Shown: positions 130 through 25,266 of the stretch, one piece after another
Numbering within the stretch: the stretch's first letter is position 1
How the letters are laid out: each line of letters begins with the position of its first letter
Assembly (NCBI GenBank): GCA_964359575.1
Contig: CAYHTV010000001.1
Location: forward strand, 5,547-69,546
DNA length: 64,000 nt
DNA from: an uncultured Planctomycetales bacterium
GTDB lineage: Bacteria > Omnitrophota > Gorgyraeia > Zapsychrales > GWA2-47-8
Direction of reading: 5' to 3'
The notes under the pieces: model-generated
The model's database searches: none
What the model was told of the DNA's origin: nothing
What the model saw: the letters and a program-made list of their open reading frames with translations, nothing else
Program-made: the position numbers and the translations under genes

Positions 130-2361
130 ATGCTCAGTGATTATTTTTGGAAAAGGTTAAGTCATGCGGCCGGCCTTCTCTCAATCAGCGGGATTTGTGC
201 CGTCTTGATCTTGATGGCCAACGTTGAGATTAAGGATTTGGATCTTTGGCTGCATATGGCCATGGGGCGGTTTATTGTCGAGAATGGTTATGTGCCTCAG
301 GTAGACGTCCTCTCTTGCACGATAGCGGGAAAACCGTGGGTCAACCACGAATGGTTGTTTCAAGTGATCGCTTATGCCGCAAATCAATGGCGCGGTCCTG
401 AGGGGCTGATTCTTCTGCAGGTTATCATTGTTGTTCTGACTCTGATCCTTTTGCTCCTGCTCGCTTATAACAAAAACAATCAGCTTGCTACGATTGTTCC
501 GTTTTTTTTGGTCCTTTTTGTTTATCGCGACCGCTTTACGATCCGTCCGGACTTATTCAGTCTGTTTTTTTTAGCATTTTTTCTGTACATTTTGTTTTAC
601 CATATCCACCGGCGGTGGGCCTGGTTTGCTTTGTTCATCATGCAGATCGCGTGGGCGAATATCCACGGATTTTTTATCTTGGGGCCATTGGTTGTTTTGC
701 TTCTTATTGTTTCCCAATGGCTCAAAAGGCGCGCCCCACTTGTGTATCACTGGAATCAGGTTGACCGCCTCGAGGATCAGGAATACCGGTCATTAAAGAA
801 TATTTTTTGGGTTCTCATTGTTGCTTGCCTTTTGAACCCTATGGGGATTCAGGGGGCATGGTATCCGATTAAAATCCTTATCCAGCTCCCTCATGAATCC
901 AAAATATTTTTTGCCAAAATTTTAGAACTGCAAAGACCAATCAATTGGCATGTTCCCTGGGCGCTCACGCCTTACCCGCATTATAAAATTTTGATCATTA
1001 TCTCCTTTTTAAGCTTTGTCGTTAACCGGCGGAAGATTAATCTTGATTTACTTTTATTGTGGATATTTTTTTTGGTCTTTTCGCTTTCTGCCATTCGGAA
1101 TTTGGTGTATTTTTCCTTTATGGCCTATTTTGTCTTTTTTGTAAACTTTTCCAATTTTTCCGGGGAACACATCCCGCTGGTAAAGGCATTCAGCGTTAAA
1201 ATGCGGCACATGCTTTCTCTGGTGGTCAAGGTGATGATCATTTTCTATCTGGTCGATTTTGGAACGCGGCTTTCGTATAACGGATATTATGATTTTGACA
1301 CGTATCAGCGCAAGAGTGAATTTGGCGGGGTGTCGTTACGTAATTTTCCTTACCAGGCCGCGGATTTTTTAATAAAGAATGATATAAAAGGAAATTTTTT
1401 TAACGATTTCAACTCCGGGGCATATCTGGCGGGCCGGTGTTTTCCCAATATCAAGGTTTTTATCGATGGCCGGACGGAATTGTACGGCGCGGAATTTTTT
1501 CAAACTCACGATCAAGCCTGGAAAGGTGATAAACAACTGTTGGATGAGCTCATAGAGAGGTATAAAATTTCCGGCCTTTTTTTGAATTCGGCGATGGCCC
1601 CGATTCCGCAAAAATTGCTTTGGCACATTTCGAAAGATAAAAAATGGGAATTGGTCTACTTGGATTATGACGCGGTCATATTTTTGCGGGTGATCCCGCA
1701 AAACGCGGAGTTCATTAGAAAATATAAAATTGATTTAGCGCGCTGGAAAACGAAGAAAATGGATCTTAAGCGTCTAGGCCTGACCAATGTTAAGCCTTAC
1801 CAAAATGTGCACCGGGCCTATTCCTTGATAGCCATGGATTTTCATGATGCGGCGTTAAAAGAGGCTTACGCGGCCGTGAAAATTATGCCAAATTATGCCG
1901 AGCCCCATAAAATTATCGGCGGCATCTTTTTGAAAAAAGGGTTATCCAAAAAAGCCTTTGAGGCGCTGCGGGTGGCGAGAATCTTGGATCCGCGGAATCC
2001 GGAAGTCCGTTACCAATTGGCGCTTTTCTTTGAAGAGCAAAACGATTTCAAACAGGCTTTGGAGCAGTGCCAAATTGCCGTGGCTTATAAACCGGGATAT
2101 CCGAGCTCGCTTCTTGCGTTAGTTCGGATTCAGGCAAAACAGGGGCAGGATAAAGAAGCGGTGGAAACTTTGAAATCCATTAAAGGGATGAGCGCCTTTG
2201 AGTCGAGTGATTTATTGTCGGTGGGGGATGTTTTTTACAATAATAAGAAATACACCTTGGCTAAAGAGGCTTACGTCATGGGTTTGAGTTTTGATCCAGA
2301 GAATCAAAATTTTAAGCTCCGACTGGATGAATTAAATAAGATGGAAGATAAACATGAGTGA
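130..2361 (+). CDS. Polytopic membrane protein with C-terminal TPR repeats (GT-C glycosyltransferase / O-antigen-ligase-like architecture), paralog 1
   Basis: 743 aa; about 10 hydrophobic segments N-terminally and TPR-like helical repeats C-terminally; about 40% identical in the membrane half to the next ORF (shared motifs DLDLWLH, KPWxNHEWLFQ, FIDGRTE); the stop overlaps the next start by 8 nt. Confidence 0.5.
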   Translation: MLSDYFWKRLSHAAGLLSISGICAVLILMANVEIKDLDLWLHMAMGRFIVENGYVPQVDVLSCTIAGKPWVNHEWLFQVIAYAANQWRGPEGLILLQVIIVVLTLILLLLLAYNKNNQLATIVPFFLVLFVYRDRFTIRPDLFSLFFLAFFLYILFYHIHRRWAWFALFIMQIAWANIHGFFILGPLVVLLLIVSQWLKRRAPLVYHWNQVDRLEDQEYRSLKNIFWVLIVACLLNPMGIQGAWYPIKILIQLPHESKIFFAKILELQRPINWHVPWALTPYPHYKILIIISFLSFVVNRRKINLDLLLLWIFFLVFSLSAIRNLVYFSFMAYFVFFVNFSNFSGEHIPLVKAFSVKMRHMLSLVVKVMIIFYLVDFGTRLSYNGYYDFDTYQRKSEFGGVSLRNFPYQAADFLIKNDIKGNFFNDFNSGAYLAGRCFPNIKVFIDGRTELYGAEFFQTHDQAWKGDKQLLDELIERYKISGLFLNSAMAPIPQKLLWHISKDKKWELVYLDYDAVIFLRVIPQNAEFIRKYKIDLARWKTKKMDLKRLGLTNVKPYQNVHRAYSLIAMDFHDAALKEAYAAVKIMPNYAEPHKIIGGIFLKKGLSKKAFEALRVARILDPRNPEVRYQLALFFEEQNDFKQALEQCQIAVAYKPGYPSSLLALVRIQAKQGQDKEAVETLKSIKGMSAFESSDLLSVGDVFYNNKKYTLAKEAYVMGLSFDPENQNFKLRLDELNKMEDKHE

Positions 2362-4666
2362 TATTTTTTGGCGAAGGGTAAGTTATTTTTGTGGGTTACT
2401 TTCAATAGGGATTTTATTTGGGATTATCGTTTTGATTGCCCATCTGGAAATCCGGGATTTGGATCTCTGGCTGCATTTGGGAATGGGGAAATTTATCGTA
2501 CAGCACGGTTATGTCCCGGATGTCGATATTTTGTCCTACATGGTGGAAGGAAAGCCGTGGATTAATCACGAATGGCTGTTCCAGATTTTCGTGTATTGGA
2601 TTCATAGCTTAAGAGGCGCGGAAGGGCTCATCCGCATGCAGGTCGTGGTGGTTTGGTCCACCATGGTTTTGTTATTGCTCTTGGGATATAACCGCGACAA
2701 ACAATTCATCGTCACCTTTTCTCTCTTATTAGTCCTTTTAATTTACATCACGCGTTTTACCATCCGGCCGGATATTTTTAGCCTGTTATTTTTTGTTCTC
2801 TATATTTATATTTTATCAATTCATATTGATAAACACTGGTCGCTGTTTGTCCTGTTTTTTGTCCAGGTTTTGTGGACCAATATGCATGGGTTTTTCTTTT
2901 TTGGTCCACTCTTTGTGCTGATTGCACTCAGCGCCGAATGGCTCAAGCGGCATGTGAAATTGCCTTACGAATGGAATAAAATCGGACGGTTAACCGACGC
3001 GGAGTACGCCCGGTTAAGGAGAATTTTGCTGGCCGTCATTTTGGCCTGTCTGATTAACCCCGTGACCTTTAAAGGCGCTTGGTACCCGATTGACGTTTTA
3101 CTTGAGCTTCCGGGTAAATCCAAGATATTCTTTGAATATATCCAAGAATTGCAAAAGCCCATCCTTAAAAGCAATGTTTTTTCGATTGAGAATTTGCCGT
3201 TTTATAAACTGATGATTGTCATTTCCATTTATAGTTTTCTTTTTAACCGGCGGAAAATCGATTTAGGGGCACTGCTTTTCTGGCTGATTTTTTTTGCTTT
3301 TTCTTTAGTGGCGGTGAGGAACTTAGTCTTTTTCGCGTTTGCTTCCTATCTCGTGATTGTCACCAACGCGCTCACAATCTCCATGAATGATATTGTACCG
3401 ATCCGTTTTACCCACAAAAGATTTCAATACATTACCGCGGCGCTGTTGAAGATTATCTTAGCGCTGTGGATGATCAATTTTAGCGTGATGATGCGCTCCG
3501 GCGGGTCGTTCGATTTTGATAAATTTGAGATAAAAAGCGATATGGAAGGCATTTCGCTTAAGAATTATCCGAATAAAGCCGTTGATTTTTTGGTGGATAA
3601 TAAGGTGCAGGGGAATATTTTAAATGATTTCAATTCCGGGGCCTATTTGGTTGGGCGATGCTATCCGGATATCAAGGTATTTATCGATGGCCGGACCGAA
3701 GTCTACGGGGCGGATTTTTTTAAAGGTATTTATCAACGGATTTGGCATCAGGGGGATATGGCCTTCTTTGAGCAGCTGGCCAGTGATCGCAATGTCACCA
3801 TCGTTTTGCTCAGCACAATCAATCAGGCAGCGCCAGAAAAAATCCTGGCACATTTTTATTCCAGAGAGGATTGGGTTCCCGTATATTTTAATTACGATGG
3901 GTTTATTTTTGTCAAAAAAGTTCCGGCTCATGAAAAACTCATTGAAAGATTTGCTATCGACTTAACGAAATGGCAGGCGCCTAAATTTGATTTGTATAAG
4001 TTGGGGGCCCGGCGGGTCTCGGCGTATCAATATACTCACCGCGCCTTTTCGTTGGAAACCTTAGGGCTGGAAGAGCCCGCTCTTGATGAAATAAATCAAG
4101 CGCTAAAGATTGATTCTGCGAGCTTCGAGGCGCATAAAATCTTAGGGAAAATTTATGGCAAGCGGGAAGATTTTCAAAAAGCCTTTGAGTATTTTCGGAT
4201 CGCCTCTTCCTTTGATCCAGGCAGCCGGCAGCTAAAGTTCAATCTGGCCCAGGCCTATTATGACTTAGGCGAATATGATTATGCGATTAAACACTATCAA
4301 TCTCTGGCTGAGTCGGATCGCAAAGATGCCAGAGCGCATTTTCTTTTAGCGCGGGCGTATGCGAAAAGCGGCCAATACGATAAGGCGCAGGAGGCGGCGG
4401 CCCGCGCCCATCAGCTGAGTCCCAGCAGCGCGAATGATTTGCTGATGATCGGGGATATCTTTTATGAGCAAAAGCAATTTACCGAGTCACAAAAAATTTA
4501 TCATCTGGTTTTGTCGATGAATAAGGAAACGGCAAAAGTCCGCAATAAGCTGGGATTGAGCTATAACGCCTTAGGAGATAAAGAGAAGGCGCAAGCGGAG
4601 TTTCAAGAGGGATTAAAAGTCGATCCAGAGAATGAGGAATTGAAAAAGAACGAAAAAGAATTATAA
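2354..4666 (+). CDS. Polytopic membrane protein with C-terminal TPR repeats, paralog 2 (tandem duplicate of the previous ORF)
   Basis: 770 aa with the same architecture and conserved motifs as 130-2361; the ATGA overlap suggests translational coupling. Confidence 0.5.
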   Translation: MSDIFWRRVSYFCGLLSIGILFGIIVLIAHLEIRDLDLWLHLGMGKFIVQHGYVPDVDILSYMVEGKPWINHEWLFQIFVYWIHSLRGAEGLIRMQVVVVWSTMVLLLLLGYNRDKQFIVTFSLLLVLLIYITRFTIRPDIFSLLFFVLYIYILSIHIDKHWSLFVLFFVQVLWTNMHGFFFFGPLFVLIALSAEWLKRHVKLPYEWNKIGRLTDAEYARLRRILLAVILACLINPVTFKGAWYPIDVLLELPGKSKIFFEYIQELQKPILKSNVFSIENLPFYKLMIVISIYSFLFNRRKIDLGALLFWLIFFAFSLVAVRNLVFFAFASYLVIVTNALTISMNDIVPIRFTHKRFQYITAALLKIILALWMINFSVMMRSGGSFDFDKFEIKSDMEGISLKNYPNKAVDFLVDNKVQGNILNDFNSGAYLVGRCYPDIKVFIDGRTEVYGADFFKGIYQRIWHQGDMAFFEQLASDRNVTIVLLSTINQAAPEKILAHFYSREDWVPVYFNYDGFIFVKKVPAHEKLIERFAIDLTKWQAPKFDLYKLGARRVSAYQYTHRAFSLETLGLEEPALDEINQALKIDSASFEAHKILGKIYGKREDFQKAFEYFRIASSFDPGSRQLKFNLAQAYYDLGEYDYAIKHYQSLAESDRKDARAHFLLARAYAKSGQYDKAQEAAARAHQLSPSSANDLLMIGDIFYEQKQFTESQKIYHLVLSMNKETAKVRNKLGLSYNALGDKEKAQAEFQEGLKVDPENEELKKNEKEL

Positions 4667-4750
4667 TTTATTTTGATTTTACATCTTTATTTGTTACAAT
4701 AAAAACATTGTTCAAAATAAAAGTCTTCAATACGAAATTTATCAAGATAA

Positions 4751-6340
4751 ATGAAAATCGCCCTTATTAACCCGCCCTATCTTATCATCTACAAAAAGTT
4801 GAATATTGAGCAGGATGCCTCTGTTCCCCTAGGACTTCTCTATGTCGCTGCTATGCTGGAAAGGCATGGCCATGAAGTCAAGGTTTTTGACTTTAATCTT
4901 CACGAAACCCTGCTTCCTGAAATGGCTGAGCAGATTGGCGAATTTCAGCCGCAGATGATCGGAATTACAGCGGTTACACCGACATTTAATTCGGCTCAGG
5001 AGATTGTGGCCAATTTCAAGCAAAGGTTTCCTCAAACCATTTTTGTTATGGGAGGCCCGCATTTAACTTCTTTACCTAAGCAGTCGCTTGAGCAAACACC
5101 AGCCGCCGATTTCGTCATCGCCGGTGAAGGGGAGTATGCCTTAACCGAGCTGGTTAAGGCCATCGAGGCTGGCCAGACCGATTTTTCTTCCATCAACGGG
5201 TTGACTTATCGGAAGGAAGGACAAGTGATTTCCAATCCGCGCGCCTCTATGATTGAGGATCTGGATCAATTGCCTTTTCCCGCGTATCATTTATTGCCGA
5301 TTACAGAATATGCCCCTTCGGTTGTCTTTCGTGTTGCTGAAAAAAGTACATTTATTATGTCCTCGCGGGGATGCGCGGCGTATTGCACGTTTTGCGCCAA
5401 TAACGTCACCGGCCGCCGGCTGCGCGATCACAGTATTGATTATTTTGTCGGCAAGATTAAATATTTACAAGAGACATATGGATTAAGACATTTTCATATT
5501 GTCGATGATAATTTTATGCATGATCAACAGCGCGTGATTGATATCTGCCAGCGCATCATTGACGAGAAATTAAAAATCACCTGGTTCATCTTTGCCCGGC
5601 CGGACCATTGTCAGAACCTGGAGACACTGAAAATGATGAAAAAAGCAGGATGCGTCTATTTGCAATTTGGGATCGAAAGCGGAAGCGAGCTCATTCTGCG
5701 GCAGATGGGAAAGAAAATTGAAAAGTCAGAATTATATCAGGCCTGTATGAACTGTAAAAAGGCAGGACTTGATTATTTTAATTCTTTTATGATCGGTAAT
5801 CCTAAAGAAACCGTTGAGACCGTGCGCGAGACGATTGATTTTGCAATCAAATTGGATGCGATTATGTCCGGCTTTAATATTTTGATTCCATACCCCGGAA
5901 CGGCTATATTCAAAAAATACTATGAGAAAGATTTTATGAATAACACAACGTGGGAAAAGTGGAACCATATCACCCATGAAGTGCCGATTGATTATCGCCA
6001 TACCAAGTTAACGAAAAAAGAGCTCGATGAGTTGCGTAAAGAATGTATCCGTCGTTATTATCTGCGCCCTCGGCACATACTGCGTTTGATTATGTTTTTT
6101 GGTGTTTCGCGTTTGCTATGGAAGTTTACCAGAAGTTCTTGGAAACATATTTTCTTTTTGTTCTCCGGATTCACGTTTAGTTCCACTAAAAAGAGAGTGC
6201 GCGATCTTGTTCGGCTCGAACCAGGACCTCTCGTGCGACCAGGTCTGAGTCAAGAGCCTGCCTTTGTAAAAACACAGGCTCGGAAAGTCTCCAGAATTTC
6301 AGATTTTATTGATTCCTTTCAAAGGGATAGTGTCGCCTAA
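4751..6340 (+). CDS. B12-binding domain radical SAM protein
   Basis: N-terminal Rossmann-like B12-binding-type domain (MKIALINPPY...GLLYVAAMLERHGHEV) followed by SSRGCAAYCTFC, a CxxxCxxC radical SAM cluster motif. Confidence 0.8.
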   Translation: MKIALINPPYLIIYKKLNIEQDASVPLGLLYVAAMLERHGHEVKVFDFNLHETLLPEMAEQIGEFQPQMIGITAVTPTFNSAQEIVANFKQRFPQTIFVMGGPHLTSLPKQSLEQTPAADFVIAGEGEYALTELVKAIEAGQTDFSSINGLTYRKEGQVISNPRASMIEDLDQLPFPAYHLLPITEYAPSVVFRVAEKSTFIMSSRGCAAYCTFCANNVTGRRLRDHSIDYFVGKIKYLQETYGLRHFHIVDDNFMHDQQRVIDICQRIIDEKLKITWFIFARPDHCQNLETLKMMKKAGCVYLQFGIESGSELILRQMGKKIEKSELYQACMNCKKAGLDYFNSFMIGNPKETVETVRETIDFAIKLDAIMSGFNILIPYPGTAIFKKYYEKDFMNNTTWEKWNHITHEVPIDYRHTKLTKKELDELRKECIRRYYLRPRHILRLIMFFGVSRLLWKFTRSSWKHIFFLFSGFTFSSTKKRVRDLVRLEPGPLVRPGLSQEPAFVKTQARKVSRISDFIDSFQRDSVA

Positions 6341-6381
6341 TCAATAAAGCAAAAAATCCTATCATTAAGCCCGCCTTTTTT

Positions 6382-8589
6382 ATGTCGTCTAAAAGTTTAA
6401 CTTCTCACGAAAAACGTTCGCTGGAAATCATTTTTGTCGCAGGTGCCTTTGTTCTGTGGCTTTTTATTTTCCGTGGTTATTTTCTCTATCAGTTAGCCCT
6501 CGGTGGGACAGCGCCGGCTTACTACTACAGGATTAAATATTATTTAGATGGTCTTTGGAATGGTATCTATCCGATGTGGAATCCTTTTCAGTCATGGGGA
6601 TACCCGGATGTTTTGGATATGCGGGTTTTAGGTGAATTTAATCCTTTTCTCTATGTGATCTGGCTTCTCCAAGGAGTCACACAATCGTTTTATCAGGCCT
6701 ATCTCGTTTATTTGGCACTCTATTATTGGTTAGGATTATTAGGGTTTTATTTATTGGCCAAATCAGTTTTGAAAGAATGGCCGCTGGCCTTTGTGGCCTA
6801 TGTGATGGTTATGTTTTCTTCCTTAGGACCAGCGACTTTTACGGAAAACGTCATAAATTTAATTTTTGTGCCACTCGCTTGGTTTTTCTATTTTATGATT
6901 AATTTTTTTAAGCAAGGCGGGCAGCGATTTTTGCTGGGGATGACGCTCGCTTTAATGATTATTCTGACAACGTATTTCCCTTTCTTTTTTGTGACAGTTT
7001 TTGTGATTTTTGCTATCGCTTTTAGCATGATATTTTTCTCTTTGCTCAAGGAAATTTTTGATCGCGGCCTAAAGCAAATTTGGCAATACAAAAAAGTAAC
7101 CATTTTTTGCATCACGGCCGTGTGTCTATCATTAGGGCCTGATCTCCTGTGGTACCGCATGTCCCATGAGGGACAGTTTATGTTTGATTTTCGCCACACG
7201 GGATCTCCTTATCAGGATGTCCTCAGCATGGATCAGGATATGATTAATAACAGCGGCATAAGCGGGGTCGTCACGTGGCGGGGATTGTTTTCGGATTTAG
7301 ATGTTTTTGCCGGAACAGAGCCAATCTTTTTCTACATTCCCATTTTTATTTATCTTATTCTTTTGCTCTCCATTCTGAACCGTGTCAATCGGCTTTTAGC
7401 CCTGCTGGGCACTTTAGGTTTTTTTCTTTTTTTTATAACGTTAGCTGATGCGACACCGATCCATCGTTTTTTGTATGATCATGTTTATTTTTTTAAATTA
7501 TTTAGAAATTTATTTTTTTTGCTGTATTTGTCTATTCCAATTTATGTCCTCTTTGCGATGGAACAATTAAGAATATTTTTGAGTGCTGCACCATTAATAA
7601 AGCAGAAAAAGGGATATTTACTTGTTTTTGTTACTTTTATCCATAGTGTGTTTGCTTTATTTTTGTATCGTTTGGGAAATGTTATGGGGCCTTCGTATCT
7701 CGCTGTTTTTCTGAGCTGGATTAGTTTTGTGCTTTATGGAGCGGGTTTTTTGAAAAGTCGCTTTGTTCTGCTGACTCTTTTATTGAGCATGGCGATTTTA
7801 AGTCAAGGGATTGCGGTCAATTTTTATGTTTGTCGAAATGCAAAACCTTACTTGATACAGATGGACAGTCCGCGGGAGACCCCATCATTTTCGTTTATTC
7901 GGCCGGCTGCGGATCATGATCCTCTTATCCCTGAGGCGCGCGGATATGCCGCTCGACGTAAAGTCATGCGTGATTCTTCCGGGTTTGTCGACAGCGAGTA
8001 TGTGGGGGTGCGATGGTCGCATTTTCTTTTAAATCATGCCGATCGGGAAAAATTAGAAAAATACACACGCTATAAATTTGTGCTTTATGACCGCGTTGAA
8101 TTCTTAAATGACAAAAGCACTGAGGCCGTAGCGGTCAATAAAATTTTTAGCGAGGTTGATAAAACAGCGTATATTTTTGATTCTTTTGCATCATCGGAAA
8201 ATAAGCAGGCTGATCAGCCGCCGAAAGAAGCCCAGTTTATTACGGAAAACTCAGATCAGTTTAAAATTGTTGATTTTAATTTAAATGAACTACGATTGAA
8301 GACCAATTTTCCGGTCCGCCATTTTTTAGTATATAATGACAGCTTTCATAAAGATTGGGCCGCGTTCATCAATGGTCAAAAGGTCAAGGTGTGGCGGGCG
8401 AATTATGCCTTTAAAGGCGTCTGGCTTCCAGCTGGAGAAAATGTTGTTTATTTCCGATACGGCCAGACTTGGTTGTATGGATATTATCTTTTTTTAATTG
8501 CGTTTATGGTATTTTTTTTGGGACGAGTGATTTGGTCGTTTCAACGCAAAAATTTAGGTGCACAATGTTTTATTCTTCAAGAGAATTAG
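6382..8589 (+). CDS. Large polytopic membrane protein, YfhO-like (possible GT-C type glycosyltransferase)
   Basis: 735 aa; many TM helices, a C-terminal soluble region, then a final TM helix; the family assignment rests on architecture only. Confidence 0.4.
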   Translation: MSSKSLTSHEKRSLEIIFVAGAFVLWLFIFRGYFLYQLALGGTAPAYYYRIKYYLDGLWNGIYPMWNPFQSWGYPDVLDMRVLGEFNPFLYVIWLLQGVTQSFYQAYLVYLALYYWLGLLGFYLLAKSVLKEWPLAFVAYVMVMFSSLGPATFTENVINLIFVPLAWFFYFMINFFKQGGQRFLLGMTLALMIILTTYFPFFFVTVFVIFAIAFSMIFFSLLKEIFDRGLKQIWQYKKVTIFCITAVCLSLGPDLLWYRMSHEGQFMFDFRHTGSPYQDVLSMDQDMINNSGISGVVTWRGLFSDLDVFAGTEPIFFYIPIFIYLILLLSILNRVNRLLALLGTLGFFLFFITLADATPIHRFLYDHVYFFKLFRNLFFLLYLSIPIYVLFAMEQLRIFLSAAPLIKQKKGYLLVFVTFIHSVFALFLYRLGNVMGPSYLAVFLSWISFVLYGAGFLKSRFVLLTLLLSMAILSQGIAVNFYVCRNAKPYLIQMDSPRETPSFSFIRPAADHDPLIPEARGYAARRKVMRDSSGFVDSEYVGVRWSHFLLNHADREKLEKYTRYKFVLYDRVEFLNDKSTEAVAVNKIFSEVDKTAYIFDSFASSENKQADQPPKEAQFITENSDQFKIVDFNLNELRLKTNFPVRHFLVYNDSFHKDWAAFINGQKVKVWRANYAFKGVWLPAGENVVYFRYGQTWLYGYYLFLIAFMVFFLGRVIWSFQRKNLGAQCFILQEN

Positions 8590-9434
8590 GGAATTTTCTA
8601 GTCAATATTCTTAAGCTCTCTTTAGTGTCTTATGTGATAGGGATAAGTATTTTATGGATCAGCCTGGATTATCGGGTGGTTCATTCCAGACGGCTTGATT
8701 ATTTAAAAGGATCGGTTGATTATCCGGTTTTATATCTTGATAAAAAAGTTTCCTTGAATCGCCGGTATCTCAAGGAGGTGGTTCGTTATTACCATGAGTT
8801 GATCGCCTTCTTGCCCTATCTTAAAGGAGAAGGCGATCAAGCGATGCCTGCCGCGCGGGCCTATGAAATGCTGGGATTGTGCTATTATTTTTTAGAGGAT
8901 TATTCTAAGGCCAATCTATTTTATCAAAAGGCCTTAAAGAAAAAACCGGATTATATTTGGATGCATTATAATGTGGCGGTACTTTATTTTAAGGAAGCAC
9001 GCTATGATAAATCCTTAGAGGAGCTTTCTTTTATTGCCCTTGACCAAATAGATCAAATAAAAAGCAGCGCCCCAGATAAAATTTTTTCACAAAAGGATCA
9101 AAGCATAAAATTAGAATTTGAGCGGATCAAGAAAAGGGAATTAGGGAGTCTGCGGCTGAAGGTTATCAACTTAACCATTCTTAATCGTCGGGCGTTAAAC
9201 CAGTTTTCTGATGAAGAAGGAACACGGCAAGAAAAAATTCTAAAATTAATGGAGCAAAAAGGGGTTCTGGTTGAACCATGGCTGCATCCTTTGAACCGTT
9301 TTGTGCCAGTGGGACGCGAGCCAATTTTAACGGAAGCTAAGGCCACGGGCTTGCCCGTGGATTTAGCTGCAGTACTTGCCCGTGGTTTTATGCCACGGGC
9401 AAGTGGCGACCCGAAGGGTCGTCCCTTGACATAG
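8564..9434 (+). CDS. TPR repeat-containing protein (hypothetical)
   Basis: The track ORF begins at 8469, inside the upstream gene; the start was trimmed to the ATG at 8564; N-terminal TM segment followed by TPR-like repeats (AYEMLGLCYYFLEDYSKANLFYQKALKKKPDY). Confidence 0.45.
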
Positions 9435-9445
9435 AAGTAGCGATA

Positions 9446-9549
9446 TTATTGACCTTTGTAGAACCAAAAGAATTGAGGTAGTCAATATTGGCCTTTGTCT
9501 CCTCAATGATAAATTAAAATTTTTTTCTTTAGTTGTACAAAGGCCCATA
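9446..9549 (+). mobile_element. MITE-like repeat family 1, copy 1 (~104 bp, imperfect TIRs TTATTGACCTTTGTAGAACC / GGGCCTTTGTACAACTA-rc, internal hairpin ATTGAGG...CCTCAAT)
   Basis: Near-identical sequence at 8 loci in both orientations; three CCTTTGT sub-motifs; intergenic. Confidence 0.8.
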
Positions 9550-9580
9550 AACGAAAATTGAAAAACTTCCAGTCTAAAGA

Positions 9581-9609
9581 TTGCAAAAGCAGATAACTGG
9601 TCGTATAAT
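9581..9609 (+). promoter_or_regulatory. Sigma-70-type promoter upstream of glgC (TTGCAA-17 nt-TATAAT)
   Basis: -35 TTGCAA at 9581-9586 and -10 TATAAT at 9604-9609, with an exact 17-nt spacer, about 50 nt upstream of the glgC start. Confidence 0.55.
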
Positions 9610-9656: not shown

Positions 9657-10880
9657 ATGCGTGATGTTTTGACGTTTATATTGGCCGGGGGAAAAGGGGA
9701 GCGTTTGGACCCCTTAACGCGGGATCGGGCGAAACCCGCGGTTCCTTTCGGTGGGATTTACCGGATTATCGATTTCACTTTGAGCAATTGCATCAATTCT
9801 GGTTTGCGCAGGGTTTATGTGCTCATTCAATACAAATCGTTTTCTCTACAAAAACATATCCTCGCTGGCTGGGATGTCGTTTCCAGCCAGTTAGGGGAAT
9901 TCATTGATGTGATTCCTGCCCAACAGCGCATCGGTTCCGATTGGTACAAGGGGACCGCGGATGCGATCTATCAAAATATTTACGCAATCCAGGACCTTAA
10001 TGCGCGCATGGTCCTGGTCCTGGCCGGCGATCATATTTATAAAATGAATTACCGCAAGATGATTGATTACCATAAAGCCATGAACGCGGATGTGACGGTG
10101 GCGTGTGTCTTAATGCCCAAGGAAACCGCGAACAATTTTGGGGTCGTGGAGGTTGATTCTAAAAATCAGGTATGCGGTTTTCAGGAAAAGCCGCAAAATC
10201 CCAGAACCCTGCCGCGCGATCCGAGCCAAATTTTTGCCTCGATGGGAATTTATCTTTTTAATAAAGATGTGCTTTTTGAAGAATTAGAGATCGACGCCCA
10301 GTCGAAAATTTCAGAACATGATTTTGGGAAGAACGTGATCCCGCAGATGCTGCAGCATAAACGCAAGATTTATGTGCATAATTTCATTGATGAAAAAAAT
10401 AAGCCTTTGTATTGGCGGGACATTGGAACGCGCGATGCCTATTACCAGGCGAACATGGATTTAGTGCGCGAAAATCCGGCTTTTAATCTTTATGATAAAT
10501 CCTGGCCGGTGAGGACTTATCACGCGCAGTACCCGCCGATCAAGCTGGTCAGCGCGTCCACTCGGCAAAGTGTGAGCCGTGGTTCGGTTCTGGACTCCAT
10601 CATTGCGGGAGGGTGCGTGATCACGGGAGGGCATATTGAGCGGTCGATTCTTTCTCCCAACGTGCGGATTTATCATGAGGCGTCTATCGCGGATTCTATT
10701 TTAATGGAGGGTGTTATTGTGGGAGAGCATTCTAAAATAAAAAACGCGATCATCGACAAAGAAGTGAATATCCCGCCCCGTTCCGTGATCGGTTATGATT
10801 TGGAATTAGATAAAAAGCGTTTTGCCGTGACCACGTCAGGAGTTGTTATTGTGCCCAAAAAAACAGCCATCCCCGAGTAG
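9657..10880 (+). CDS. glgC: Glucose-1-phosphate adenylyltransferase
   Basis: N-terminal ILAGGKGERLDPLTRDRAKPAVPFGG nucleotidyltransferase motif and a C-terminal left-handed beta-helix domain; 407 aa. Confidence 0.9.
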   Translation: MRDVLTFILAGGKGERLDPLTRDRAKPAVPFGGIYRIIDFTLSNCINSGLRRVYVLIQYKSFSLQKHILAGWDVVSSQLGEFIDVIPAQQRIGSDWYKGTADAIYQNIYAIQDLNARMVLVLAGDHIYKMNYRKMIDYHKAMNADVTVACVLMPKETANNFGVVEVDSKNQVCGFQEKPQNPRTLPRDPSQIFASMGIYLFNKDVLFEELEIDAQSKISEHDFGKNVIPQMLQHKRKIYVHNFIDEKNKPLYWRDIGTRDAYYQANMDLVRENPAFNLYDKSWPVRTYHAQYPPIKLVSASTRQSVSRGSVLDSIIAGGCVITGGHIERSILSPNVRIYHEASIADSILMEGVIVGEHSKIKNAIIDKEVNIPPRSVIGYDLELDKKRFAVTTSGVVIVPKKTAIPE

Positions 10881-10894
10881 ATCATCGTTTGTAT

Positions 10895-10998
10895 TATGGG
10901 CCTTTGTACAACTAAAGAAAAAAATTTGGATTTATCATTGAGGAGACAAAGGCCAATATTGACTACCTCAATTCTTTTGGTTCTACAAAGGTCAATAA
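10895..10998 (-). mobile_element. MITE-like repeat family 1, copy 2 (reverse orientation)
   Basis: Reverse complement of the copy-1 sequence; lies between the glgC stop and the fabV RBS. Confidence 0.8.
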
Positions 10999-11016
10999 TA
11001 TAAAAAAGGGAACCTT

Positions 11017-12772: not shown

Positions 12773-13033
12773 ATGGCAATAGTAGATATTAATAATGTTG
12801 AAAAGGATATGCGCGAGCTTATCGCGGAAATTTTGGAAGGTGAGCCTTCCGATATCAAAGGGGAGGCCAATTTCGTGAAAGATCTTGGCATGGATTCGAT
12901 GATGGCTTTGGAAGTTTTGGCCGGCATTGAAAAAAAGTATCGTATTGTTATTCCTGAGGATCTGTTACCAAAATTTACCGATTTGAATGCCACGGTCACG
13001 ATCGTAAAAAAATTATTGGCTAATAAGAAATAA
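12773..13033 (+). CDS. Acyl carrier protein
   Basis: The track ORF starts at 12728; trimmed to the ATG at 12773, which is preceded by an AGGAGGA RBS; DLGMDSMMALEVL phosphopantetheine-attachment motif; 86 aa. Confidence 0.8.
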   Translation: MAIVDINNVEKDMRELIAEILEGEPSDIKGEANFVKDLGMDSMMALEVLAGIEKKYRIVIPEDLLPKFTDLNATVTIVKKLLANKK

Positions 13034-13087
13034 ATTTTAATAACTCTCCATTCGCAAGCACAGTAAAGAAAAAGGGAGGAGCGACGA

Positions 13088-16000
13088 ATGTATTTTAAAC
13101 GGCTGGAGATCTTTGGTTTCAAATCATTCGCGGATAAAACAACTCTTAATTTTGAGCCGGGGATCACCGCCATCGTGGGGCCTAATGGATGCGGCAAGAG
13201 CAATGTCTTTGATTCGATCCGCTGGGTTTTAGGAGAACAAAGCGTCAAAGAATTGCGCGGTTCGACGATGGAGGATGTTATTTTTAATGGGACCGATAAA
13301 AAACCTGCCCTGGGATTTGCCGAGGTCAGCCTCACCTTTTCCAATGAAGCGAAAATGTTGCCCATCGAATACGATGAAGTCACGGTGACCCGGCGGCTTT
13401 TCCGTTCGGGAGAAAGCGAATATCTCCTCAATAAAAGTGTCGTGCGTCTGCGCGACATTCAGGAGTTATTTATGGGAACGGGAGTCGGCGCAGAGGCTTA
13501 TTCGCTCGTCCAGCAGGGAAAAGTGGATCTGGTGGTGAGCGCGCGCCCTGAGGACCGCCGCATGATTTTGGACGAGGCCTCCGGCATCACCAAATATAAA
13601 TCCAAGAAAAAAGAGGCCTTGAACCGGCTCAAAGATACCGAAAATAATTTATTGCGCATCAATGACATTATTATCGAAGTCAAGCGGCAGATTGCCTCCA
13701 TTGAACGCCAGGCGACCAAGGCGAGAAAATATAAAGAAGAATTTCAGAAGTTGCAGAGTTTAGAAGTTCAATTGGCCCGGCACCAGTTGAAAAGGAACGC
13801 AGATGAGAAGAGCCAACTGCAGAATCAATTGAATGAGCTGCGCGAGCAAGAGTCGCGGTTGAGCCAAGAATTAACGGAAAATGGCAGTCTTTTAGAGAGC
13901 CAAGGACAATTGCTCAGCGACTTAGAGCAGAAGATCAATGAGCTTCATAGTGAAGATATTAAACTGGAAAGTCAACTGGATATCAATAACCGCCAAATTG
14001 GTTTTAATGAAGAGCGTATTGCGAACTTAACGGATACAGAAGTTCGCCTGGTCGAAAAGAAAACTCAGCTTCTGGAGCGCTGCCGTAAAGAGCAGGAGCG
14101 CATTGAAGAATTAAAGCAGGGTCTGGTGAGGCTAAGCGGCGAGCTGCAAGAAAAGGTGCAAGCCTTGCGCACAAGAAAAGAAAATTTAAATAGCATTACC
14201 ATTTCTGTTGCGGAGGCGCAGAGATCTATCCTCCAGTATGAAGAGAACATTCTCAACGTTACTTCAAAACAGGTGAGTATTAGAAATGAACTCACCGAAG
14301 TGATGAAAGAAATTCAAGGCTGCCTGGCCCGTAACCGCCGTTTGGAATTGGAAAATACCAAAGTTTCTTCAGAAAAACAAGAAGTGGATGAAAAATTACA
14401 GGCGATTTCGCAGCAGCTTCAGAAGGCCTTAGAAATATTGACCGGCCTGAGGGTCGAACAGGAAAACAATAATCAGATTTTAAATGATCTCAACGGCCAG
14501 TTGGGAATCTTGGAGCAGGACATCAACAGTTTGGAAAAAAATAAATTTTCGCTCGAATCGCAAAGGGAATTTATTGAAAAACTGCAAGTGCAATACAAAG
14601 ATATCCCCGATCCGATTATTGAGGGGCGGCTTATCACTTCCACACCGCCTTCAGAAAAGCATACCGGGATTATTGGAAAAGTTAAAGATGTGGTGGAGCT
14701 TGACCCGCAGCGGGCGGAGGTCATTCGTAACAGTTTTCAGGACTCAAATCGGGAGCATCTTTTTGAAGTCTATTGCGAAGCGAAATTTATTGAGCTGGAT
14801 CCCCAGCAGATTATCGACCGGATTCAACGGATACATGAAGAAATTGTCTTAAAACAAGAGCAGCGCCGAGAATGGGTAGCCAAGATCGAAGAACAAAAGT
14901 CCCGCAATGACGAGATCGATAAGGCCATATATGATGAAGAAAAAGTCATCTCAATCCTGGAATCGCAGAAAAAAGACATTCTGGATGATATGAACAAATT
15001 GCTCAATGAGCTGGAGTTGGTCGATAGCGAGCTCGGCGAAGTCAGGGAATCCTTAAATCACTTGAAAAAGAAAGAAGAAGAGTTAATCTTCCATTTTGAT
15101 ACTTTGGCGCAGGATTTGACATCTTACCAGAATAATATTAAAGAACGTCAGAATTTTATCAGTTTTAAGCGCCAGCAGAAGGAAGAGGTTACGGTGGCGA
15201 TTGCGCAACTAGAGACGGAAGTGGAATCGGGACGGGAAAAACAAAAAGCCCAATTGGAAAATTTAAATCTTTTCGAGCAAGGCCTTGATCAGGAGTTAGG
15301 AGAGATTAAGAAATTTGATGATGAACAGGCCGAGTACTTGCAGAAACGGGAACAGTTTCAAAATGAAATTGTTCAGCTGCAAGAAACCATTGAGCGGCTC
15401 AAAGATCAGAAGCAGTCTTTGAAAAATATTCTTATTGAGCAGGAACGTGAGAAGGCGGAAGTTCTTCAACGGCTCAATGGCTTCCGGGCGCATATGGCTT
15501 CACTGGAAGAGGAGATCATTGAAATTAAGCAAGCCTTGCATAGCCAAGAAATGAAGGAGCAGGAAATTTCCTTCAATGAAAGGGGGATTAAAGACCGCTT
15601 AGTACAGGCTTATCGGATTAATCTGGATGAGATGGCGGAGGATGCCTTGCCAGCGCCTGTTGGGGAGATTCCCGTTGGCTCGGATGAATTTATCGGTCAA
15701 GTTGAGCGTCTGAAAAAGCGCTGTGAGTCTTTTGGCTCGGTGAATTTGGTCGCGATTGAAGAATTTGAAGAATTAAAACAGCGGTTTGAGTTTTTAACCA
15801 AGCAGCAAAGCGATCTTTTGGAAGCGAAGGATTCGCTGCATAAAACTATCACGCAGATCAACCGTAAGACCCGTCAGATGTTTATGGAGACCTTCACCCG
15901 GGTCAGCGAAGAATTTAGGATTTATTTCCGGATGCTTTTTGGGGGAGGGGAAGCCCAGTTGGTTTTGTTAGATCAAGAAAATGTTTTAGAATCAGGTATT

Positions 16001-23413: not shown

Positions 23414-23487
23414 GGGCCCATAGCTCAGTCGGTCAGAGCAGTTGACTCATAATCAATTGGTCCCTGGTTCGAGTCCAGGTGGGCCCA
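23414..23487 (+). tRNA. tRNA-Met (anticodon CAT; elongator-type, could instead be tRNA-Ile2/lysidine)
   Basis: Cloverleaf with acceptor stem GGGCCCA/TGGGCCC, anticodon loop CTCATAA and TTCGAGT T-loop; G1-C72 pairs, so it is not an initiator; no encoded CCA. Confidence 0.8.
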
Positions 23488-23503
23488 GAGAAAAGTTGTT
23501 TCA

Positions 23504-23580
23504 GGGCGTATAGCTCAGCTGGTTAGAGCGCTGCCCTCACATGGCAGAGGCCGAGGGTTCGAGTCCTTCTATGCCCACCA
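23504..23580 (+). tRNA. tRNA-Val (anticodon CAC)
   Basis: Acceptor stem GGGCGTA/TATGCCC, anticodon stem CTGCC/GGCAG with loop CTCACAT, T-loop TTCGAGT, encoded CCA. Confidence 0.85.
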
Positions 23581-24396: not shown

Positions 24397-24854
24397 TGAA
24401 AGTTTTGGAAATATTTACCGATGGGGCGTGCCGCGGCAATCCGGGGCCGTCAGCCATCGGGGTGGTTATTAAGGAAAACGGCAAGGTTGTTAAAAAGATT
24501 GCACAATCAATAGGGGAAGCCACCAATAATATTGCCGAATACACGGCCTTAGTTTGCGCCCTGAAGGCGGCGGCAGGGCTTAAAGCCCAGCAGTTAAAAA
24601 TTTATACCGATAGTGAACTGCTTTATTATCAGTTGACCGGCACCTATCAGATTAAAAATGAGAATTTGAAATTACTTTTTGCTAAGGCTCAGGAAGCGGG
24701 GAAGAAATTTGAGCATATCCAAATTAAGCGTATTCCCCGTGAGCAAAATCAAGACGCCGATAAGTTGGCGACCCAAGCTATAAAAAAAGAGCAGGCCAAG
24801 GTGGTTGCCTCGGTGTTTTACACCGGGGAGGAAAGTCCGAGCTCCGCAGGATAA
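24393..24854 (+). CDS. rnhA: Ribonuclease HI
   Basis: LEIFTDGACRGNPGPSAIGVV, IAEYTALVCAL and IYTDSELL catalytic motifs of the RNase H fold; the last ~22 codons overlap the rnpB 5' region. Confidence 0.85.
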   Translation: MMKVLEIFTDGACRGNPGPSAIGVVIKENGKVVKKIAQSIGEATNNIAEYTALVCALKAAAGLKAQQLKIYTDSELLYYQLTGTYQIKNENLKLLFAKAQEAGKKFEHIQIKRIPREQNQDADKLATQAIKKEQAKVVASVFYTGEESPSSAG

Positions 24855-25263
24855 TGTATCCCGGTAATGCGGGACGATCCTAGTACTGTGTTTCCGAAAT
24901 TATGTACATAGAGGGACACAGTACTGTACTATGTTCCTCTGAATAAAATTAAAGTAACATAGTACTGGTTTATCGATTGAATAAAATCAATCAGTGGAAA
25001 TCTAGGAACGGATTAGAGCTACAGTGACGATGATCTCGGTGTTTACATCGAGGGAAGTGAAACGAGCAATCTCTACATGGAGCAAGGCCAAATAGGAAGA
25101 GAGCCTTAGCAAAATAATGGGGCACGAATCGATCCGGTTCGTTATTATCTTCGGGTAGGCTGCAAGAGTCAAGAGAGTAATCTCTTAGAGTGAGTGAGAT
25201 AACTACCCCTCATGCCTAAAAACATCATGAGGAACATAACTCGGCTTATTGGTCTGCTCAATT
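24786..25263 (+). ncRNA. rnpB: RNase P RNA (bacterial type A)
   Basis: GGAGGAAAGTCCGAGCTCC (P4 5' strand) at 24826-24844; CCCGGTAATGCGGG; GGAGCAAGGCCAAATAGG at 25079; CGGGTAGGCTGC; ACATAACTCGGCTTATTGG (P4 3' strand) with compensatory change CCGAG/CTCGG relative to E. coli CCGGG/CCCGG; P1 pairing AAGAGCAGGCCAA (24787-24799) with TTGGTCTGCTCAA (25248-25260); about 476 nt including an expansion around 24880-24960. Confidence 0.8.
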
Positions 25264-25266
25264 ATC

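Follow-up and report, generated by a model that had tools for sequence, protein, structure and literature searches.

A putative GT-C glycosyltransferase family with a tetratricopeptide repeat array, and a three-gene module inserted beside it, in an Omnitrophota genome fragment

Overview of the locus

In this study, we analysed a 64-kb stretch of contig CAYHTV010000001.1 (referred to as the window; all coordinates are positions in it), focusing on a row of five genes at 130–9434. These comprise two adjacent paralogs, A and B, encoding membrane proteins with C-terminal tetratricopeptide repeats (TPRs), a cobalamin-dependent radical S-adenosylmethionine (SAM) gene, a further membrane protein gene, D, and a gene for a separate TPR protein, E. 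As the main new result, A and B belong to a large, unannotated GT-C family, which displays an oligosaccharyltransferase-like fold without the motifs that define these enzymes, carries a TPR array, and is encoded by a core gene of Omnitrophota, a mostly uncultured phylum of very small cells. The region as a whole is probably a composite of two independent units, namely a tandem duplicate of this core gene (130–4666) and an inserted three-gene module (about 4667–9565). Thousands of database proteins labelled only "tetratricopeptide repeat protein" hide the strongly conserved GT-C domain, for which no family model exists, and recognising the family would correct annotation at scale and provide the oligosaccharyltransferases with a deep neighbouring branch.

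The window is a fragment of an Omnitrophota genome with a GC content of 40–49%. Its closest named relative is Omnitrophica WOR_2, in which the homolog of B is 81% identical, and an identical locus is present on metagenome contigs from Hainich groundwater. Gene A (130–2361, + strand) encodes 743 amino acids and represents an extra, more divergent upstream copy, consisting of a GT-C membrane domain, a periplasmic domain, and C-terminal TPRs. Gene B (2354–4666, + strand; 770 amino acids) is the core-type copy, with the membrane GT-C domain at residues 1–381 (2354–3496), a periplasmic alpha/beta domain at residues 384–550 (3503–4003), and the TPR array at residues 558–769 (4025–4660). A first-pass annotation, made from the sequence alone, had described five open reading frames, all of which were recovered on the + strand. 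Its estimate of about 40% identity between A and B agrees with the 41% found over 745 residues (E = 0), the overlap of 8 nucleotides (nt) between both genes is ATGAGTGA at 2354–2361, and Pfam likewise places TPRs at both C-termini. Altogether, the gene-level reading of the first-pass annotation was right, but its proposal of one functional cluster is unsupported, the row being a juxtaposition. A tidy row of genes on the same strand can thus result from a recent juxtaposition.

Membrane domain of A and B

An AlphaFold (AF2) model of B, built with 50 homologs, revealed 11 membrane helices in a GT-C fold, followed by an alpha/beta domain of 170 residues and about six TPRs (predicted local distance difference test 88.6, predicted template modelling score 0.78). 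Besides TPR proteins, the best structural matches were STT3B, PglB, AglB, DPY19, and Pmt4, with 423–457 residues of STT3B, PglB, and AglB aligned to the model and Foldseek E-values of 4.8e-7 for AglB and 1.2e-6 for DPY19. Based on the odd number of helices and the loop charges, the alpha/beta domain and the TPRs of B are placed outside the cytoplasm. The first-pass annotation had seen a kinship to GT-C-type transferases, which holds for the fold and for the acidic motif described below; at the level of profiles, neither PMT, PMT_2, nor TMTC (DUF1736) from Pfam matched the full proteins or residues 1–560 of nine members. Its suggested kinship to O-antigen ligase fusions was not borne out, as the Wzy_C profile did not match A or B either and the nearest folds besides TPR proteins are oligosaccharyltransferases; all structural neighbours listed were TPR-type repeat proteins or GT-C enzymes. 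An unrelated transporter family, the outcome that had been named as speaking against a glycosyltransferase, did not turn up in any of these searches. For the membrane domain, neither phmmer nor an hmmsearch with the family profile retrieved a solved membrane protein among the PDB sequences.

The acidic DxD motif expected for the first outer loop is present and conserved. In B, it is part of a set formed by E32, D35, D37, and H41 directly after helix 1; among 30 relatives with identities of 22–51%, D37 was invariant and W39 and H41 were at least 90% conserved. All four shared motifs noted in the first pass (DLDLWLH, KPWxNHEWLFQ, NDFNSGAYL, and FIDGRTE) were detected in both A and B and are invariant or nearly so across 50 relatives, and the 30 more distant ones retained their cores, namely D37, W39, H41, W69, W74, N424, G429, Y431, D445, G446, and R447. 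Further positions that were invariant or at least 90% conserved at these distances are R134, R138, P139, W174, N176, E265, R322, and N323. Copy A retains every residue that is invariant in the family, including D36xD38 and H42. Overall, the membrane domain is better conserved than the TPR part. Conservation peaks at acidic and basic residues of the outer loops, the region that harbours the active site in GT-C enzymes.

Taken together, A and B are predicted to be inner-membrane GT-C (fold A) glycosyltransferases of a large uncurated family. Their predicted donor is a sugar linked to polyprenyl phosphate, which they would use on the outer side of the inner membrane to modify a periplasmic acceptor. 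The TPR array would recruit this acceptor, for which a protein or a polymer of the envelope is most likely.

Family size and the conserved gene backbone

An exhaustive profile search, counted in clusters at 50% identity, retrieved 24,126 clusters at E ≤ 1e-3, 14,053 at E ≤ 1e-10, and 2,249 at E ≤ 1e-30. Ten distant members were inspected; all of them had the membrane domain and a TPR tail, and in none did Pfam match the membrane part. Source names, available for four of the ten, pointed to the Planctomycetes-Verrucomicrobia-Chlamydiae (PVC) group, Elusimicrobiota, Nitrospinota, and Tritonobacter, with the proteins labelled "TPR protein" or "hypothetical protein". A literature search retrieved no paper on the family, which is thus large and lacks a curated model.

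At least 529 genomes with an A/B relative were found in a genome scan that included one genome per species, and the best 80 matches, corresponding to 79 loci, formed the basis of all synteny counts. Most of these loci carry Omnitrophota names. Many third-party assembled bins that share the Omnitrophota-type backbone have been deposited as "uncultured Planctomycetales bacterium", which looks like a taxonomic mislabel. The gene order oppD-oppF-X-glgC-fabV-smc, in which X stands for one or two copies of the A/B gene, was almost universal among the 79 loci. The gap between oppF and X had a median of 16 nt (67 of 72 gaps ≤ 150 nt and 27 ≤ 10 nt, with many 4-nt overlaps), and that between X and glgC a median of 69 nt (≤ 300 nt in 63 of 65 cases). 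Tandem pairs occurred in about 23 of the 79 loci, with the copy on the glgC side being conserved (49–81% identical to B) and the upstream copy more divergent; a clear ortholog of A (74% identity) was found only in the WOR_2 genome (L011; such labels denote compared genome or metagenome stretches). Since the order is fixed across the 79 loci, we consider the A/B gene a core gene of Omnitrophota that is sometimes duplicated. It is probably transcribed together with the upstream genes for an Opp/Dpp peptide-type ATP-binding cassette (ABC) importer, and it points to a step in envelope or protein glycosylation that appears indispensable in this phylum.

Two further observations were made in this backbone. 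Besides the usual copy after oppF, L051 has a distantly related version of the A/B membrane domain (24% identity), which is encoded upstream of oppD at 7049–8461. In three other loci (L003, L004, and L005), a Wzy_C gene of the O-antigen ligase or O-oligosaccharyltransferase type directly precedes pgk-tpiA-secG and the opp genes, at a distance of about 9 kb from the A/B gene on its upstream side.

The tight and often overlapping linkage to oppF, together with a public annotation as TPR protein only, would also fit a non-enzymatic role, in which A and B serve as membrane-anchored TPR scaffolds or chaperones, e.g., for the neighbouring ABC importer or in the assembly of the outer membrane or pili, on a degenerate GT-C fold. 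We regard this as very unlikely, because conservation is strongest at the acidic and basic outer-loop residues at the GT-C active-site position and because the TPR part is less conserved than the membrane domain.

Insertion of the radical SAM gene, D, and E

The second unit consists of the radical SAM gene (4751–6340, + strand; 529 amino acids), which leads the module, D (6382–8589, + strand; 735 amino acids), and E (8565–9434, + strand; 289 amino acids). For E, the start codon ATG at 8565, which is also used by public gene calls, is more likely than TTG at 8469. The module is followed by glgC for glucose-1-phosphate adenylyltransferase (9657–10880, + strand; TIGR02091, 479.5 bits with a cut-off of 424.9), the backbone gene that normally comes directly after B. 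Spacers measured 84 nt between B and the radical SAM gene, 41 nt between the latter and D, −25 nt between D and E, and 222 nt between E and glgC.

The first-pass annotation had taken all five genes as a single envelope glycosylation cluster. This could not be maintained, as the radical SAM gene, D, and E were never found within 10 kb of the A/B gene in the 79 Omnitrophota genomes, and as this trio has its own, different conserved contexts elsewhere. In the nearest relatives (81% and 64% identity), the tandem A/B pair leads straight into glgC and the trio is missing. The extra DNA of the window covers about 4667–9565, between B and the glgC promoter, and the glgC promoter region can be aligned across genomes, using the spacers between B and glgC in L006 and L008, only from about 9570 on. 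The insertion starts with a promoter-like site that matches 11 of 12 consensus positions (4640–4667, + strand; TTGAAA-16-TATAAT); it falls into the end of B and lies 84 nt before the radical SAM gene. This site is a consensus match only, and the total of such sites in the region was no higher than in shuffled sequences. A second one, where the backbone resumes, is conserved before glgC (9581–9609, + strand; TTGCAA-17-TATAAT), and its neighbourhood aligns with the same spacers of L006 and L008. The right edge of the insertion is occupied by a copy of a dispersed repeat of about 103 nt (9443–9550, no strand assigned), which both of these spacers lack. It is the only repeat that stands out at the ends of the insertion, as no convincing direct or inverted repeat was detected at the left one. 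In terms of GC content at third codon positions (GC3), D and E revealed 0.40, compared to 0.51–0.54 for the flanking genes. Altogether, the three genes form a module that was inserted in this lineage only.

At this junction, L027 carries an insert of 6.3 kb, which was considered as a similar module and rejected, as it holds genes for HtrA proteases and a GDSL-like protein and an IS110 transposase.

Several points weigh against the reading as a duplicated core glycosyltransferase gene next to an insertion. Sequence comparison provides the first of them. Residues 1–560 of A, B, and seven relatives matched only TPR families in Pfam and NCBIfam, even at E ≤ 10, the family profile matched no oligosaccharyltransferase chain in PDB at E ≤ 10, and no significant sequence homology to any characterised GT-C family was found. 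Even with a diverse family profile, an hhalign comparison with a single sequence, Campylobacter lari PglB (checked against PDB 3RCE), yielded a probability of 35% (E = 4e-4, 158 columns), which is below significance. The proposed donor and acceptor follow purely from the predicted fold. As for the insertion, neither flanking direct repeats nor a mobility gene marking it were found, and the low GC3 of D and E could be explained by the composition of membrane proteins instead of a foreign origin. Finally, the five genes share their orientation, are closely spaced, and are not separated by any terminator-like site, and their co-transcription, or even functional cooperation, in this lineage is possible.

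This last arrangement, together with the fact that the three large proteins (A, B, and D) are all GT-C enzymes by fold, is what an operon for a single envelope glycosylation pathway would look like, in which A, B, and D act on a glycan or lipid that the radical SAM enzyme modifies. Such a pathway seems unlikely, considering that the trio accompanies the A/B gene in none of the 79 loci, that B runs straight to glgC in both nearest relatives, that the trio genes keep other partners elsewhere, that the radical SAM gene has a strong promoter-like site in front of it, and that the same junction received the unrelated insertion of L027. We therefore retain the interpretation as two independent units as the probable one.

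D and E as a transferase and its TPR partner

The product of D displays a GT-C fold, with a polytopic domain followed by an outer beta-rich domain and a final C-terminal helix, a layout resembling that of YfhO proteins. It had been called YfhO-like in the first pass, which holds at the level of the family, in which 19 of 27 members match Pfam YfhO (PF09586; best E = 1.2e-10), while D alone remains under the cut-off with a weak match restricted to its C-terminus (E = 1.2e-4, 21.1 bits, cut-off 28.5). D is probably a divergent YfhO-type GT-C transferase. As for A and B, its predicted reaction is the transfer of a sugar from a polyprenyl-phosphate donor on the outer side of the inner membrane.

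E revealed a single N-terminal hydrophobic helix (residues 11–34) and Pfam matches to TPRs, and its homologs in L009 and L010 are the genes that come after the D homologs there. For the pairing of both genes, 80 metagenomic loci were analysed, 70 of which had enough sequence. An E-like gene followed within 450 nt after D in 62 of these 70, making E the conserved, membrane-anchored TPR partner of D. Based on this pairing, D and E mirror A and B as a split version of a transferase with TPRs. In other genomes, the pair is found in clusters for sugar activation and glycans. Neighbouring genes of the homologs included GT2, LPG_synthase_TM, DegT, oxidoreductase, acetyltransferase, and further YfhO genes; the GT2 and flippase-like genes near D homologs recall the three-component systems of YfhO proteins. 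Tandem D-E-D-E arrays or an extra upstream E-like gene were observed in L100, L105, L137, L095, L104, L109, and L110, which suggests that the pair was repeatedly duplicated.

Radical SAM enzyme and its cassette

The assignment of the open reading frame 4751–6340 to the class B radical SAM enzymes by the first-pass annotation was confirmed by an N-terminal B12-binding domain (PF02310, 92.2 bits, cut-off 32.1) and a Radical_SAM domain (PF04055, 76.6 bits, cut-off 29.5). The CX3CX2C motif reads CAAYCTFC in the translation (C208-x3-C212-x2-C215). Its close relatives form a group with identities of 61–78%, the next relatives being at 43%; the highest value, 78%, belongs to L009, where the gene precedes the D/E homologs. 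Among the 70 loci analysed for D and E, an orthologous radical SAM gene was present beside D in only one.

In three genomes, the close relatives are part of a recurrent Omnitrophota cassette with somewhat variable gene order (L172, 4206–14587; L173, 1–10518; L009, 1412–12919). It contains genes for a radical SAM enzyme, a GT2 glycosyltransferase, a SAM methyltransferase, a flavin adenine dinucleotide-dependent amine oxidase, a B12 radical SAM enzyme, a second methyltransferase, a SPASM radical SAM enzyme, and a large membrane protein of about 720 amino acids without a Pfam match. D takes the place of this membrane protein, with E after it, only in the window and in L009, which was recovered a second time as L090. 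The corresponding proteins of L172 and L173 were considered as homologs of D or A/B and rejected, as they are 33% identical to each other and homologous to neither. None of the remaining genes of the cassette, namely those for GT2, the methyltransferases, the amine oxidase, and the SPASM radical SAM enzyme, was found in the 64-kb window. The B12 radical SAM enzyme of the window most likely modifies a sugar or lipid-linked intermediate, probably by methylation, or else by rearrangement. Independently of A and B, the cassette with its several radical SAM genes represents a separate lead to sugar or lipid modification.

Repeats and RNA elements

A palindromic intergenic repeat (1–105, no strand assigned) is located between an upstream oppF-like ABC ATPase gene, which lies off the window, and A. 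Its predicted fold has an energy of −47 kcal/mol (z = −5.9), and its core also occurs in L041 and L046. Since an identical copy in the sister assembly L001 (about 12980–13090) sits exactly where L001 leaves the window after glgC (window position 11002), a rearrangement or an assembly join at the repeat is suggested.

The dispersed intergenic repeat of about 103 nt mentioned above, TTATTGACCTTTGTAGAACC...GTACAAAGGCCCATA, is present in seven near-identical copies in the window (9443–9550, 10894–11001, and at about 12419, 16376, 18628, 25267, and 50719), the first two of which form a 108-nt inverted repeat with 98% identity around glgC. With an RNA fold z of −3.7, it looks like an element of the miniature inverted-repeat transposable element (MITE) or repetitive extragenic palindromic (REP) type. 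Rfam revealed no match in the five-gene region. Further downstream, a bacterial class A RNase P RNA was identified at 24788–25264 (137.7 bits; 477 nt compared to a model of 367 positions), and genes for tRNA-Met and tRNA-Val were found nearby at 23414–23580.

Comparison with known systems

HpnJ and BchE were the best curated matches of the radical SAM enzyme, sharing with it the B12-binding and radical SAM domains and the CX3CX2C motif. The scores of 223.6 bits for HpnJ (cut-off 577.6) and 197.4 bits for BchE (cut-off 481.35) are far under the NCBIfam cut-offs, so that the enzyme is not assigned as an equivalog of either. The gene context differs as well, as relatives of the open reading frame 4751–6340 lie near GT2, SAM methyltransferase, amine oxidase, and SPASM radical SAM genes.

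With respect to D, YfhO of Bacillus subtilis is a GlcNAc (N-acetylglucosamine) transferase acting on lipoteichoic acid (PMC5836110, PMC8035078). D differs from it by its dedicated TPR partner gene and by a Pfam score below the cut-off. Teichoic acid is not expected in the host phylum.

As in the GT66 enzymes STT3, PglB, and AglB, the periplasmic alpha/beta domain of B follows the last helix. In the hhalign comparison with PglB, shallow family profiles gave one weak match with a probability of 6–8%, and the match of the diverse profile aligned residues 286–461 of B to 337–496 of PglB, which comprises the final four helices and the beginning of the periplasmic domain with the WWDYG-DGG segment. 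Here, R322 of B was placed on R371 of PglB, one helical turn from the pyrophosphate-binding R375, and Y431 and D445-G446 of B were paired with the identical residues Y468 and D481-G482. D425-F426-N427 of B was set on W463-W464-D465, so the WWDYG motif is absent from B. One could take this sole match, which sets NDFNSGAY...DGRTE of B on WWDYGY...DGGKH of PglB, along with the rank of STT3B, PglB, and AglB as best structural matches besides TPR proteins, to mean that A and B are true GT66 oligosaccharyltransferases, which would transfer a lipid-pyrophosphate-linked glycan en bloc to asparagine residues of periplasmic proteins. We consider this highly improbable. D-F-N stands in place of the sequon-binding WWD, the predicted helices of B number 11 rather than 13, Pfam STT3 did not match at E ≤ 10 in any of nine members, and the hhalign probability stayed under significance; moreover, a TPR array is present only in B. 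Because of the missing WWD, the number of helices, and the lack of an STT3 profile match, the family is placed outside GT66, and it looks like a remote relative of the oligosaccharyltransferases.

Membrane regions joined to TPRs are known from two other systems. The eukaryotic proteins TMTC1-4 combine a membrane region of the GT-C/PMT clan with TPRs (PMC7801869). TfpW, the pilin arabinosyltransferase of Pseudomonas aeruginosa, has a cytoplasmic N-terminus, 11 predicted helices, extracytoplasmic C-terminal TPRs, and an acidic GT-C motif in an outer loop (bioRxiv 10.1101/2020.04.19.049825), which is the same overall architecture as in A and B. Unlike TMTC1-4 and TfpW, A and B possess the additional alpha/beta domain of 170 residues between the membrane part and the TPRs; they also have no adjacent pilin gene and, as described above, no match to the PMT, PMT_2, or TMTC profiles. 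Since TMTC1-4 and TfpW glycosylate specific proteins, the TPRs of A and B would by analogy most likely select the acceptor. A more far-reaching view, which we find possible but doubtful, would make A and B a new and widespread class of bacterial periplasmic protein glycosyltransferases, namely a remote offshoot of the oligosaccharyltransferases in which WWD was replaced, the acceptor is chosen via the fused TPRs, and a single-copy core gene of Omnitrophota is co-transcribed with an ABC importer. In both units described here, the TPR modules, fused to the transferase in A and B and encoded separately in E, may recruit the acceptors, and the recurrence of a transferase with TPRs in fused and split form suggests a general way for GT-C enzymes to choose their acceptors.

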